This document shows, one piece after another, positions 11,131 through 45,489 of a stretch of 64,000 bases of DNA; the first letter of the stretch is position 1, and each line of letters starts with the position of its first letter. The notes beneath the pieces were generated by a model. That model was not told the origin of the DNA. It made no database searches and saw only the letters and a program-made list of their open reading frames with translations. The translations under genes were made by a program, and so were the position numbers. The DNA is from Lacibacter sp. (GTDB lineage Bacteria > Bacteroidota > Bacteroidia > Chitinophagales > Chitinophagaceae): positions 193,070-257,069 of the forward strand of contig JBKBIL010000003.1 in the NCBI GenBank assembly GCA_046297415.1. Direction: 5' to 3'.

Positions 11131-12522
11131 TTATACAAACAGGTATCGGTACAATTCTTCCACCTTGCTCATGGTTATTATTTCAATGTTGTATTTATTC
11201 TGGGGTTTTTGCCGGCCCTGATGTTGGGCGCCCAGGTTGTAACGACTGATAATAATTTTTTCAAAACCCAGTTTTTCGGCTTCGGCTATGCGTTGTTCAA
11301 TGCGGTTTACGGCCCGTATTTCGCCGCTCAGTCCTACTTCGCCGGCAAAGCAAATCTGCGAGTTCAGCGGCACATCTTCGTAGCTCGAGAGCAGGGCACA
11401 GAGTACGGCCAGGTCAATCGAAGGGTCTTCCACTTTCAATCCGCCGGCGATGTTCAGAAACACATCTTTGGTGCCAAACTGAAAGCCGCCGCGTTTTTCG
11501 AGTACGGCCAGCAGTAGTTGCAGGCGGCGCAGGTCAAAACCACTTACGGTTCGTTGCGGCGTGCCGTACACGCTTTGCGTTACCAGGGCCTGTACCTCAA
11601 TCAGCAACGGACGTAAACCCTCCATCGTTGCGGAAATGGCAATACCGCTGAGTTGTTCTTCTTTTTGGGTGATGAGTATTTCGCTGGGGTTGCTTACGGG
11701 GCGCATGCCGGTGGCCGTCATTTCATAAATGCCCAGCTCGGAGGTGGAGCCGAAGCGGTTTTTCATGGTGCGTAAAATGCGGTAGGTATAATGCCGGTCG
11801 CCTTCAAACTGCAGCACAGTATCCACCATATGCTCCAATATTTTGGGGCCGGCAATGCTGCCGTCTTTGGTAATATGTCCGATTAAAAAAACCGGAATAT
11901 TGGTTTCCTTGGCAAAGCGCTGCAGCTCGGCGGCGGTTTCACGGATTTGCGATATGCTGCCCGGTCCGCTTTCGATATAAGGTGTTTGCAGGGTTTGGAT
12001 GGAATCAATAATCACTACCTGGGGTTGCAGTTTTTTGACTTCCTGAAAAATGGTGTTGGTGGAGGTTTCGGTAAGCAGGTAAAACGCATCGTTCTGCAGT
12101 TGCAGGCGGTCGGCCCGCATGCGAATTTGCTGGCTGCTTTCTTCGCCGCTTACATACAGGGTACGGATACCCTGCAGTTGTAAACCCAGTTGTAAAAACA
12201 AAGTGGATTTACCGATGCCCGGCTCGCCGGCTATCAGCACTATGCTGCCGGGCACAATGCCGCCGCCCAGCACCCGGTTGAGTTCGTTATCGGGCGTAAG
12301 AATGCGTTGTTCTGTTGTGCCCAATACCTCCTGCAGCAGCACGGCTTTTGCCGCTTCGCCTGTGTTGCGTTCTTTCCAAAGCTGTTTGGAACTGCCGGTA
12401 TCTTTGGATATTACTTCTTCAATAAACGTGTTCCACTCGTTGCAGGCCGGACATTTCCCCAGCCATTTAGCCGATTCATAGCCGCAGTTGCGACAAAAAA
12501 ATGCGGTCTTCACTTTTGCCAT
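11131..12522 (-). CDS. radA: DNA repair protein RadA/Sms
   Basis: CRNCG...CPAC zinc finger, GEPGIGKST, MKNRFG (KNRFG), Lon-like C-terminus GEVGLSGEIR. Confidence 0.96.
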   Translation of the reverse strand: MAKVKTAFFCRNCGYESAKWLGKCPACNEWNTFIEEVISKDTGSSKQLWKERNTGEAAKAVLLQEVLGTTEQRILTPDNELNRVLGGGIVPGSIVLIAGEPGIGKSTLFLQLGLQLQGIRTLYVSGEESSQQIRMRADRLQLQNDAFYLLTETSTNTIFQEVKKLQPQVVIIDSIQTLQTPYIESGPGSISQIRETAAELQRFAKETNIPVFLIGHITKDGSIAGPKILEHMVDTVLQFEGDRHYTYRILRTMKNRFGSTSELGIYEMTATGMRPVSNPSEILITQKEEQLSGIAISATMEGLRPLLIEVQALVTQSVYGTPQRTVSGFDLRRLQLLLAVLEKRGGFQFGTKDVFLNIAGGLKVEDPSIDLAVLCALLSSYEDVPLNSQICFAGEVGLSGEIRAVNRIEQRIAEAEKLGFEKIIISRYNLGAQHQGRQKPQNKYNIEIITMSKVEELYRYLFV

Positions 12523-12579
12523 GGCGTAAAGGTAGGGGCTTCGCTTTGCATGGTATTTGCGTAGGGGGGTGCAAATTTT

Positions 12580-12724
12580 ACCGCAACGGTCGCAATGCTT
12601 TCACGAGGAGCACAAAGTGATAGATCATATCAGGAGTTTCCAATTTTTCTCTTCGTTCCAATTTCAAGTTATCGGATTGGGAATGCCTTGTGCCCTTTGT
12701 GCATTTCTTCGTGCCCTTTGTGGT
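12580..12724. repeat. Inverted pair of 9-nt-periodic repeats around a ~70-nt AT-rich spacer
   Basis: 12580-12617 ACCGCAACGGTCGCAATG...CACGAGGAGCACAAAG resembles the reverse complement of 12687-12724 (ACCACAAAGGGCACGAAGAAATGCACAAAGGGCAC). Confidence 0.65.
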
Positions 12725-12834
12725 TGTAGAATTTTTCAAAACTAATTGCAGGGAGATCTTTTTTTGGGGCACCAGATGCAACGCCGCCGGGCTCGTTTAT
12801 GGAGGTAAAAATGCGGCTGCAGGGCAGGGTTTAT

Positions 12835-12893
12835 AAAAAGTAAAAGGGCTGGAATTGCTTCCAACCCTTTGTACTTACTAACCCATTAAATTC
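12835..12893 (-). ncRNA. Candidate ~60-nt small RNA
   Basis: Minus-strand TTTG-N18-TAATTTAG promoter (12928-12899) followed within 60 nt by hairpin AAAGGGTTGGAA-GCAA-TTCCAGCCCTTT and a U tract; no ORF in between. Confidence 0.45.
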
Positions 12894-13199
12894 TATTGCT
12901 AAATTACAAATAACCCCCACATTTCAAAATTATTTTTGGCCCCTGTGAATAAGTTTTTGACCGGCGGCTGGCACCGGAAAAGCTGGCAGGACTTTTCGGA
13001 AAACGATTTTATTTTATTGTAAATCAAACACTTGTGAGGGTGTCTTTCAAAAAGCTGCCGCAAAGTCTCAACAAAGAAAAGGTGCTGGAAATCAGCCGGG
13101 TACGCCAAATTGGCGGAAGGCAGGACGGGTTGTGTCGAAATGCGATTTTTAACAGCTTTGGTAAGCCTTTTGCAGTTTATTTTGCCAAAAAAACGAGCA

Positions 13200-13889
13200 A
13201 TGACTCCCGGAATTCTTTTTATCTCCTTAGTGTTTATGGTAATTGGCTTTTTGGTGCAAATGCAACTGAAAAGCAAGTTTAAAAAATACAGCCAGGAGCC
13301 CCTGATGAGCGGCCTGACCGGCCGGCAGGTGGCCGAAAAAATGCTGATAGAACACGGCATCCACGATGTGAAAGTGGTGTCGGTAGAAGGTTTTTTGACC
13401 GACCATTACAACCCGCTGAACAAAACCGTAAACCTCAGCCCCGAAGTATATAATGGTAACTCCATTGCGGCTGCGGCCGTAGCTGCCCACGAGGTAGGCC
13501 ATGCGGTACAGCATGCTACGGCTTACCAGTGGCTGATGCTGCGCTCCCGCCTGGTGCCCCTGGTGCAGGTAAGCAGCACACTGTCGCAATGGGTAATACT
13601 GGCCGGACTGGGTTTGGGCTTTGGTAGCGGTAATGCTACCGTACTGCTGATTGGTATCGGTTTATTTGCCATTTCTACCCTGTTTTCCATCATTACCCTG
13701 CCGGTGGAATTTGATGCCAGCAACCGGGCGCTTGCCTGGCTCAATCATACCAATGTAACCAACAGCTACGAAGCCCCCGGTGCCAAAGATGCCCTCAAAT
13801 GGGCTGCCATGACCTATGTTGTGGCTGCCTTGGCTTCGGTTGCCATGTTGGTGCAGTACATACTGATATTTTTAGGCAGACGCGATTAA
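13200..13889 (+). CDS. YugP-like membrane zinc metallopeptidase
   Basis: LTDHYNP, AAHEVGHAVQ (HExxH), TLPVEFDASNRA. Start set at ATG 13200. Confidence 0.88.
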   Translation: MTPGILFISLVFMVIGFLVQMQLKSKFKKYSQEPLMSGLTGRQVAEKMLIEHGIHDVKVVSVEGFLTDHYNPLNKTVNLSPEVYNGNSIAAAAVAAHEVGHAVQHATAYQWLMLRSRLVPLVQVSSTLSQWVILAGLGLGFGSGNATVLLIGIGLFAISTLFSIITLPVEFDASNRALAWLNHTNVTNSYEAPGAKDALKWAAMTYVVAALASVAMLVQYILIFLGRRD

Positions 13890-14099: not shown

Positions 14100-17000
14100 A
14101 TGAGAAAATTGCTCCAACTGATGTTGGGTTTCATGCTGGTTTTCAGTTACGCATGGGCTCAAAACAGAGAGGTAACCGGTAAAGTTACCGATGCAAAAGA
14201 TGGTTCACCGCTTTCGGGTGTTACAATTCGTGTAAAAGGATCGAATACGGTTGCATTGTCCAATCCGGACGGTTCCTTTAAAATTTCCGTTCCTGCCGGC
14301 AGGGTAATTCTGCAATTCTCCTTTGTGGGATTTGAAGAATTGGAATTGCCGGTTACCGGCAATACTGCCATGGTGGCCTTAACCCCCGGTGCACGCACCA
14401 TGCAGGAAGTGGTGATCACCGGTTTCGGTACGCAAATCAAACGGGAGGTAACCGGTAACATTGCCCGGGTAAAGGGTAAGGAAATTGAAAACATGCCAAC
14501 TCCTACCGTTGATGCGGCCCTGCAGGGACGTGCCGCCGGTGTGTATGTTAACAGCCAGTCGGGTAAACTGGGCCAGGCGGTTAGCGTACGGGTACGGGGT
14601 AACTCTTCGGTAAGTGCCGGTAACGAACCGCTTTACGTGGTTGACGGTGTGCCCATTACTACTTACAGCCAAAGCAGCTATGGTGGTGCTACCAACCCGC
14701 TGGTTGACCTCAACCCCAACGATATTGAGTCGATTGAAGTATTGAAAGATGCTTCTGCCGGCGCTATTTACGGTGCCCGTGCCGCTAACGGCGTGGTGCT
14801 GATAACTACAAAAAAAGGAAAGAGCGGTAAAACCAACGTGAGTGTGAACTTTCAAACAGGCTACTCTGAATCTACCCGCCGTGTTCCCATGCTGAACTCG
14901 GAACAATATGCTGAGTTGTTGCTGGAAGGAGCCAAATACATTGACGATTCTTATGGCACTCCCATCACCGATCCGTTTAGCGAAACGCAATATGCCAAAG
15001 ACTGGATGAGCTACTTCAGCTACGGACAGTGGGATACGGATCCTAAAAAAACCTACGATTGGCAGGATGTGGTGTTCCAAAAGGGGTTATACAACCAGGC
15101 CGATGTGCAAATGAGCGGTGGTAACGACAAAACCAAGTTCTTCATGTCGGGCCAGTACCTCGATCAAAAAGGAATCATCATCGGTAACAATCTCGAGCGT
15201 TTTACCGGCCGTTTGAATTTGGATCATAAGGCCAACGACTGGCTCACGCTGGGCCTTACCACCAGTGTGGCCCGTACCTTGAACCGCCGCTTGCCCGACG
15301 ACAACGCCTTCTCCAACCCGTTGCAAAGTGTGGCTCTGATGCCCATGACGCCCAATATTGATCCCAATACGGGCTTGCCCGCGGGAACGCCTCCGGGTGA
15401 TGTAAACATTCCGATGTATTACAACCCCATCATTACCGTTAACTATGCCAAGTTTACCGCCGAATCGTTCCGGAATTTCAGCAACGGTTATGCAACCGCC
15501 AAGTTGGCTCCCGGCCTTATTTTCCAGAGTGAATTTGGTGTGGACCTGCTGAGCCAGCAGGAAGAAGGTTACTTCCAGTCACAAACCGTGCGCAACCAAA
15601 CCCGTGCGGTACGCGGCCTGGGTATCAACCGCGGTACCTTTGTTACCAACTATAATACCAACAACTATTTCAACTATACCAATACATTCGGTAAGAGCGA
15701 TATTTCGGCAACACTGGGTATGCAATACCAGCAGTCAACCGCCAAATACAATTTTGTAGAAGGCCTCGACTTCCCCTCGGATTCGTACCAGCGTATCGCC
15801 AGCGCTGCCACCATTTCCGGCGGTAGCTCTTCGGAAACCAACTTCCGTTTCCTTTCGTACTTCCTGCGGGGTAATTATAAGTTTAACGACAAATACCTGG
15901 TATCGCTCAGCGGACGTATTGATGGCTCTTCCCGCTTTGGTATTAACAATCGTTATGGTTTCTTTCCCGCCGCTTCTGCCGGATGGATTCTTTCGGAAGA
16001 AAAATTCATGAGCAAGATTAAAGATCTGAGCTTCCTGAAACTTCGTGCCAGCTATGGTATTGTGGGTAATGCCGAAATCGGCAACTTCCCCCAGCTGGGC
16101 CTGTTTACCGGTAGTGCCGGTTATGCCGGTATCGGTGGTCAGTTTCCCTCGCAAATCGGTAACCCCGATCTTACTTGGGAAACCAGCAAGCAGTTTGATG
16201 TGGGCTTCGACTTTGGCTTCTTCAACAACCGCCTCACCGGTGAAGTGGACTACTACATCCGCAATTCTGAAGGCCTGCTGTTAAACGTAAACATTCCTAC
16301 CTCAACCGGTTTTGCCTCGGTGGTGAAAAACCTGGGCCGCATGAGCAACAAAGGTTTTGAGTTTGTAATGAATACGCAGAACGTTGTAGGTAAGTTTACC
16401 TGGACTACTTCGCTGAACTTTGCAACCAACCGCAATAAAGTGGTTGACCTGAATGGCCAGGTAATTGAAGGAGGCGTAGGTAACCTGAACCGTGCCATGG
16501 AAGGCCAGCCGCTGGGTGTATTCTTTACCGTTGAATATGCTGGTGTAAATCCGCAAAACGGCGATGCCCAGTTCTATAAAAACGAAAAGAAATCGGATGG
16601 CACCATTGACCGCACCATCCTGAGCAACGCACAATACAACCAGGCGCAGCGTGTGGTGGTAGGCGACCCCAACCCCCGCTGGATTGGTGGCGTTACCAAT
16701 ACCTTCACCTACAAAGGTTTCGACCTCTCGATTTTCTTCAACGGTACGTTTGGAAACAAAGTATCGGTGTTTGGTATGGGCCAGTATTCGATGGCTAACA
16801 TGATTTACGAAGACAACCAAACCGCCGATCAAATGAAGCGTTGGCAAAAGCCCGGCGACATCACCAATGTACCGCAGGCTCGCTACTGGTTTGGTAATGG
16901 CAACCAGCGCAGCAGCCGTTTCATTGTAGATGGTTCGTTTGTACGCCTGCGTACCTTAAACCTGGGATACACTTTTTCGAAAGAAATGCTGAAGCGCATC

Positions 17001-45105: not shown

Positions 45106-45489
45106 ATGCAAACCTCTGAGCACCATCATTACAATAAGAACCTTCGTCATTATGCTCGCGAACTCCGTGGCAATATGACTAAGGCAGAAGCTGTACTCTG
45201 GAAACATGTTTTAAGGGCAGGTATGATGAAAGGCTACACGTTTAATCGACAGCGACCTGTTTTAAATTTCATTGCTGATTTCATGTGTAAGGACTTAAAA
45301 CTTGTTATAGAAGTTGATGGTATTACACATCATGAGGAAAGCACTGTAATCAGAGATGAATTAAAAGACAAAGCGTTGAAAGCTGCCGGATTTTATGTGA
45401 TGCGTTTCAGTGATAATGAAGTACTGAATGGTTTAGAAGGAGTCAGAAGATCAATTCTTTCATGGATTGAAGAAAATGAAAATGGATAA
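45106..45489 (+). CDS. DUF559 / Vsr-like endonuclease, copy 1
   Basis: YARELRGNMTKAEAVLW, FNRQRPVLNFIADFMC, VIEVDGITH, GFYVMRF. Confidence 0.9.
   Translation: MQTSEHHHYNKNLRHYARELRGNMTKAEAVLWKHVLRAGMMKGYTFNRQRPVLNFIADFMCKDLKLVIEVDGITHHEESTVIRDELKDKALKAAGFYVMRFSDNEVLNGLEGVRRSILSWIEENENG

Follow-up and report, generated by a model that had tools for sequence, protein, structure and literature searches.

A candidate small RNA upstream of radA in Chitinophagaceae, with a predicted complementary partner RNA

A short minus-strand element between radA and a divergent peptidase gene, in the 64,000-nt stretch of Lacibacter sp. DNA analysed here (the window), was assigned, with a probability of roughly 70%, to a small RNA of ~60 nt (sRNA1) that is transcribed on its own, base-pairs in trans, is specific to Chitinophagaceae and has a dedicated anti-sRNA or sponge (sRNA2). 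Judged by sequence and structure, sRNA1 is a predicted new sRNA family related to no known one: searches of the sRNA1 and sRNA2 regions against Rfam 15 gave at best 25 bits against thresholds of 50-60, all to unrelated families, and no earlier description of the element was found in the literature. Feature coordinates are collected in table 1.

Table 1. Features of sRNA1, its flanking genes and its predicted partners. Positions are those of the window unless a contig of the same genome (G000) is given.
Feature	Position	Strand	Remarks
-33-like TTTG	12928-12925	minus	sequence read; Bacteroidota-type promoter; invariant in genus, TTTT in many other genera
Promoter spacer	18 nt between TTTG and TAATTTAG	minus	sequence read
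-7 box TAATTTAG	12906-12899	minus	7/8 match to TAnnTTTG
Segment CAATAGAATTTAATGGGTTAGTAAGTAC	12898-12871	minus	between -7 box and stem; sequence read
Predicted sRNA1 transcript	12894-12835	minus	~58-60 nt; from promoter geometry and terminator
Unpaired seed AGAAUUUAAUGGGUUAGUAAGUAC	12894-12871	minus	invariant columns in alignment A1
Terminator stem AAAGGGTTGGAA / TTCCAGCCCTTT	12870-12859 / 12854-12843	minus	12 bp, GNRA loop (GCAA)
Tail TACTTTTT	12842-12835	minus	sequence read
TTATTCACA box	12944-12952	minus	~50-60 nt upstream of predicted start; fits DnaA-box consensus TTATNCACA
TACCTTTA -7-like box	12527-12534	minus	ends 4 nt before radA ATG; candidate radA promoter
radA	11131-12522	minus	downstream, same strand; Pfam Zn ribbon, RecA-like ATPase, Lon_C
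Zn_peptidase_2 gene	13200-13889	plus	divergent upstream neighbour; Pfam E 2.7e-86
sRNA2	C2:90915-90999 (L240:1501-1585)	minus	between divergent LpxD-like gene and yicC
H1-like gene UTR motif	C6:45181-45200 (L003:1501-1729)		67-aa ORF at 45206
SWIB-gene UTR site	C7, ~91918-91935 (L366)	minus	

An earlier note on this DNA had described a minus-strand TTTG-N18-TAATTTAG, a 12-bp hairpin and a U tract, and all of these were present at the coordinates of table 1, with ~25 unpaired nt ahead of the hairpin. Bacteroidota sigma-A promoters carry a -7 TAnnTTTG and a -33 TTTG ~17-21 nt apart (PMC9723704, PMC7366714), and TTTG, the 18-nt spacer and the 7/8 match of TAATTTAG were accordingly classed as a predicted promoter. 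Such a promoter would start sRNA1 ~5-7 nt past TAATTTAG, a 5' end that we infer to within ~2 nt, and the hairpin (12 pairs, five of them G-C, a 4-nt loop and then the U tract UACUUUUU), which was also picked up by a terminator scan, would end it. UACUU of the tail is able to lengthen the stem through AAGUA of the seed. The 24 nt 5' of the stem were invariant among 63 distinct sequences and mostly unpaired in the minimum-free-energy fold; by complementarity, 12886-12871 of this seed is predicted to pair with sRNA2 and 12894-12875 with the 5' UTR of an H1-like gene. The genome holds a single copy of sRNA1, with a score of 94.5 bits for covariance model R1 at the window locus, and the search for paralogues that the earlier note had proposed found none in the own genome, just as its proposed Rfam search found nothing above threshold.

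For the conservation search, the whole 678-bp spacer between radA and the Zn-peptidase gene was compared with 24 genomes of the same genus, and was conserved solely at 12829-12958 (query 243-372), with 86-92% identity, in 20 of them. In the genus alignment the promoter boxes were fixed, the spacer between them was variable, the upper stem carried compensatory changes and 30 nt, from AGAATTT through AAAGGG, were invariant. At least 120 species records contain the exact core 23-mer, and almost all of them carry the label Ferruginibacter, Chitinophagaceae or Chitinophagales; in the ~120 exact-match loci the -7 box was near-invariant (TAATTTAG, in a minority TACTTTAG) and the promoter spacer varied. 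One clade has the -7 box TACATTTG 6 nt farther upstream, with the predicted 5' end still just before GAAUUU, and transcription of that segment is therefore what appears to be conserved. Model R1 was then applied to one genome per genus for 150 genera of Chitinophagaceae and detected the element in 131 of them, a count that, like the others given here, overstates independence because the sampled genomes are related. No credible element was found with the covariance model outside the family: matches elsewhere in the order, at E 1e-5 to 1e-3, lacked the core and lay downstream of CDS stops, and were for these reasons rejected as ordinary terminators. The conservation in related genomes on which the earlier note had staked its proposal thus holds at both genus and family level, and its idea of a separate promoter and terminator is supported by family-wide retention of the boxes, the unpaired 5' segment and the terminator, with a promoter spacer and flanks that vary.

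Across the 63 distinct sequences, 98.5% of the cells of the 12-bp helix were paired and five of the 12 pairs showed double (compensatory) changes; none of 500 shuffles reached the observed covariation score, and controls with slid partners collapsed. Read on the minus strand, the irregular stem pair is U.G; on the plus strand it would be A.C. The earlier note had used this wobble to support the polarity, and the argument extends to the 63 sequences, in which G.U pairs likewise occur in the minus-strand sense only and so fix the polarity. The loop was GAAA, GCAA or GUAA in most sequences. The five pairs of the stem extension were formed in nearly all of the 63 sequences, the commonest pair being present in 55-62, and changed only from UA to UG and from GC to GU, which preserves wobble pairing. 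As judged from these alignments, the arrangement is more than chance, being the sole conserved block of its spacer and having a covarying stem.

Complements of the seed were searched for in the own genome (50% G+C), and one 16-nt perfect match was obtained, GTACTTACTAACCCAT at C2:90959-90974 (minus), where ~0.02 such matches are expected by chance (estimate). The match lies within a second predicted RNA gene, sRNA2, laid out as TTTG-N16-TAATATTG (-7 box), a 5' hairpin GGGAA...TTCCC, an unpaired site and a terminator, and the invariant AUGGGUUAGUAAGUAC of sRNA1 is the perfect 16-nt complement of its invariant unpaired segment. Nothing else in its spacer is conserved in the genus, whereas sRNA2, with its predicted promoter, 5' hairpin and terminator, is kept in 23 of 24 genomes; GGTACTTACTAACCCATCCAT was nearly invariant in the genus alignment, and the terminator varied yet stayed base-paired. 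The unit contains the invariant GGUACUUACUAACCCAUCCAU. The downstream neighbour varies (yicC in 15 of 55 loci), and sRNA2 is therefore taken to be a free-standing gene. In one clade sRNA2 has no 5' hairpin, and the anti-seed is shown in the loop of an AGGAU/AUCCU stem. Cofolding of sRNA1 and sRNA2 gave an intermolecular duplex with both terminators kept.

Covariance model R2 detected sRNA2 in 135 of the 150 family genera. Both RNAs were present in 127 genera and both absent from 11; sRNA1 was found without sRNA2 in four and sRNA2 without sRNA1 in eight, and these 12 discordant genera were mostly represented by fragmented assemblies or weak matches. A 16/16-bp complement of the seed in the own genome, combined with co-occurrence, is the sequence pattern of a sponge or anti-sRNA.

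The seed is also complementary, through AGAAUUUAAU(G)GGUUAGUAA, to a motif in the 5' UTR of a gene directly after rpmA (contig C6) that encodes a 67-aa Lys/Ala-rich protein (MATKKAAKKAAPKK...). This protein had no match in Pfam or NCBIfam and its exact sequence was absent from the protein collection, so that the label 'H1-like' rests on composition only. The motif sits at -27 to -8 relative to the ATG. AGAAUUUAA, the part of the seed outside the sRNA2 duplex, is invariant as well and, together with GGUUAGUAA, complements TTACTAACCATTAAATTCT of the UTR, 7-25 nt upstream of the ATG. The motif UUUACUAACCAUUAAAUUCU was kept in 22 of 22 genus genomes and, with rpmA as anchor, in 29 of 30 other genera, with UTR flanks that differ. 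The seed gave a mean duplex energy of -18.9 kcal/mol with these UTRs, where 300 shuffled seeds gave -8.6 +/- 1.2, a contrast that is descriptive and not a probability because the UTRs are related.

Concerted change at the three loci was seen in a single lineage, genome G044, in which sRNA1 reads AAUGUGUUAG (middle G->U), sRNA2 reads ACUAACACAU (C->A) and the H1-like UTR reads ACUAACAAUU (UUUACUAACAAUUAAAUU; C->A), each change restoring a Watson-Crick pair at the same position. Conserved target sites with a compensatory change are the pattern of a trans-acting sRNA. In G073 the same position is altered in both sRNAs, but an A.A mismatch is left; this genome has no Lys/Ala-rich gene after rpmA. 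Genomes in which sRNA1 could not be detected conformed to expectation: G071 and G093 had a degenerate UTR motif, and in G046, G048 and G064 the H1-like gene was missing after rpmA. The earlier proposal of a trans-acting sRNA with a GGTTAGT-containing seed is thereby strengthened, in that two conserved RNAs complement that very segment and are predicted to pair with it, with concerted change in one genus; the note mentions neither sRNA2 nor the near-constant linkage to radA.

Further candidate targets were assessed in the own genome. A gene for a SWIB-domain protein, Lys/Ala-rich at its N-terminus like the H1-like protein, has in its UTR a conserved motif, CCCATTAACATTC, that is partly complementary to the seed. 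Sites complementary to 11-12 nt of the seed occur at a response-regulator/histidine-kinase locus on contig C5, the kinase site lying at the end of the preceding ORF. A 16/17-nt near-complement ~200 nt upstream of uvrA (C10 ~14940-14960, L320) was unconserved in 30 genus genomes and was discarded as probably a chance match. An energy scan of 2666 start regions genome-wide gave no significant enrichment over shuffled seeds, so energy ranking alone supports no target.

In the proposed mechanism, block A (GAAUUUAA) and block B (GGUUAGUAA) of sRNA1 would pair with the H1-like 5' UTR and, more weakly, with that of the SWIB-domain paralogue. Bacteroidota mRNAs lack Shine-Dalgarno sequences and their initiation depends on an unstructured start region (PMC6847099), so repression would be the likely outcome, the pairing just upstream of the AUG, in an A/U-rich region, being expected to block initiation. 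sRNA2 would compete for the seed through its stronger, perfect 16-bp duplex on the overlapping AUGGGUUAGUAAGUAC and would relieve repression; from this overlap it is most likely a sponge or anti-sRNA that titrates or antagonises sRNA1, and the roles of regulator and sponge could be swapped.

Boxes of the type TT(A/T)TN(C/A)ACA, resembling DnaA boxes, were found upstream of the sRNA1 promoter in most loci of the genus and family, and are conserved upstream of the sRNA2 promoter as well, with two at C2:91044-91074; genome-wide, 838 sites fit the relaxed motif. Quite speculatively, the whole might form a chaperone-independent three-RNA circuit in which mutually antagonistic sRNAs with DnaA-box-like promoters set translation of H1-like nucleoid proteins throughout Chitinophagaceae and couple chromosome compaction to replication or DNA-repair status. 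Were this doubtful scheme true, the fixed position beside radA would also fit. Separately, the sole cluster in the genome of at least four TTATNCACA-type boxes within 400 nt is intergenic, at C11:4159-4258, and may be oriC.

Position gives some weight to an unlikely alternative, namely a cis-acting leader or attenuator in which the promoter would be that of radA, the hairpin a regulated terminator and the 60-nt RNA its terminated product, and in one variant of which sRNA2 might pair with the leader and tune read-through. radA was directly downstream on the same strand in ~185 of ~190 informative loci, though the upstream neighbour varied (the Zn_peptidase_2 gene in only 18 of 120 exact-match loci), and in several other genera it started just 8-25 nt past the covariance-model match, making read-through or promoter overlap with radA likely there. 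Exact TAnnTTTG was present in only 13 of 131 element-radA spacers, a count that was rejected as a test for a radA promoter, being uninformative at a detection rate of only 21% among control promoters. At four loci (L122, L164, L184 and L197) the element is nevertheless intact although the gene after it is a convergent one and not radA, and the distance from terminator tail to radA ATG was unconserved, at 80-396 nt in exact-match loci. radA itself would be served by TACCTTTA, and TAC(A/C)TTTAC-type boxes stand directly before its ATG in many relatives (-7-like boxes 4-5 nt from the ATG), which suggests a leaderless or near-leaderless mRNA; the linkage of element and radA is then probably architectural. 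An attenuator should always precede a promoterless gene, and neither the four loci nor the box at the ATG agrees with this. By-hand inspection of the alignment revealed no mutually exclusive antiterminator: the sole alternative fold pairs the seed with the 3' arm of the stem, and a hairpin still precedes the U tract. The complementarity to the H1-like UTR would also go unexplained. These points speak against a radA leader as the only role of the element. A leader-peptide attenuator built on the mini-ORF AUG-GGU-UAG-UAA of the seed was considered, and nothing supporting it was found. A trans-acting sRNA1 remains the preferred reading over any of these cis-acting arrangements.

The three complementary sites are at the same time one double-stranded motif, so concerted change alone also fits a DNA-binding factor, and an operator with the core TTACTAACC(C)AT just downstream of three promoters was considered on this ground. 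A shift in protein specificity would predict the triple change in G044 too, and each of the sites is 10-40 nt downstream of a predicted start. This possibility was rated low, and is distinctly improbable, because typical operators do not resemble so long (16-24 nt), invariant and non-palindromic a motif, because complementarity outgrows the core in a partner-specific manner (GUAC with sRNA2, AGAAUUUAA with the UTR), as RNA pairing would explain, and because the motif occupies the unpaired part of sRNA1 and sRNA2 units that bear covarying RNA hairpins. It is, moreover, antisense to sRNA1 in both partners and is held in a hairpin loop of sRNA2 in one clade. Scarcely credible is a fortuitous promoter- and terminator-like layout, or the terminator of an ORF. 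Consensus scans do find equally many promoter- and terminator-like sites in shuffled sequence, and the statement of the earlier note that no CDS ends here was not literally accurate, a 153-aa minus-strand ORF (12899-13360) ending in the TAG of TAATTTAG. This ORF was rejected as a real CDS and is regarded as spurious because it has no Pfam match and overlaps the plus-strand Zn_peptidase_2 gene; and family-wide conservation, a covarying stem and conserved complementary partners all speak against both variants. Base pairing in trans by sRNA1 is thus retained as the best account of the three loci.

The spacer between terminator and radA (window 12540-12830) is 314 nt long here, against ~130-150 nt in most genus relatives, and holds CACAAAGGGCAC-type repeats (12580-12724); because contigs C11 and C19 have similar ones, those of the spacer look like an inserted repeat element. 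At L184 (1-1121; genome G042) the sRNA is located downstream of an ORF that by eye resembles the RNase E/G family, with a convergent membrane-protein gene downstream of the sRNA, and radA is not adjacent.

Chitinophagaceae make up a major bacterial family of soils and fresh water. To our knowledge Bacteroidota have neither Hfq nor ProQ, targets are known for very few of their sRNAs, and none of these sRNAs is known in Chitinophagaceae. The present analysis provides for this family a family-wide candidate sRNA, a predicted dedicated anti-sRNA and a predicted mRNA target encoding an H1-like nucleoid protein, and suggests a so far undescribed RNA circuit, in a phylum without the usual sRNA chaperones. 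If the circuit is real, control of an H1-like protein by an sRNA, known from IhtA/hctA in Chlamydia, would have a second and independent example. The natural compensatory variation makes the circuit directly testable with few constructs in cultivable Ferruginibacter or Chitinophaga.

Among known systems, sRNA sponges and anti-sRNAs such as SroC/GcvB and RosA/RoxS-FsrA are RNAs with a seed complement that titrate an sRNA or trigger its decay. sRNA1 and sRNA2 differ from these pairs in that both appear to be stand-alone genes with their own predicted promoters and terminators, and in that ~127 of 150 genera retain the two together, with a perfect 14-16-bp duplex. In plasmids of the pT181/pIP501 type an antisense RNA pairs with a terminator-bearing leader upstream of the regulated gene, a likeness that would hold if sRNA2 acted on a radA leader; here, in contrast, sRNA2 is a trans-encoded partner at a distance of 8-40 kb, neither a pre-emptor nor an antiterminator was found, and four genomes have kept the element with no radA behind it. 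The Chlamydia sRNA IhtA represses translation of hctA, which encodes the histone-like protein Hc1 (PMC3469542, PMC4355289). Like sRNA1 as predicted here, it pairs at the start region of the mRNA of a small, very basic H1-like protein and is conserved throughout its lineage; it belongs to a different phylum and has no sequence or structure relationship to sRNA1, for which, unlike IhtA, the AUG lies downstream of the predicted pairing, there is a predicted second sRNA dedicated to it by complementarity, and the effect is predicted only. GibS of Bacteroides thetaiotaomicron, a trans-acting sRNA (PMC7366714), resembles sRNA1 in its promoter of the TAnnTTTG type, its intrinsic terminator and its unpaired region, for which mRNA start regions are the predicted partners; sRNA1 differs from it in being unrelated in sequence, much shorter (~60 nt), confined to Chitinophagaceae and directed at other predicted targets. 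The closest case by function is therefore IhtA/hctA, and the closest by architecture are the sponge pairs together with Bacteroides sRNAs such as GibS.
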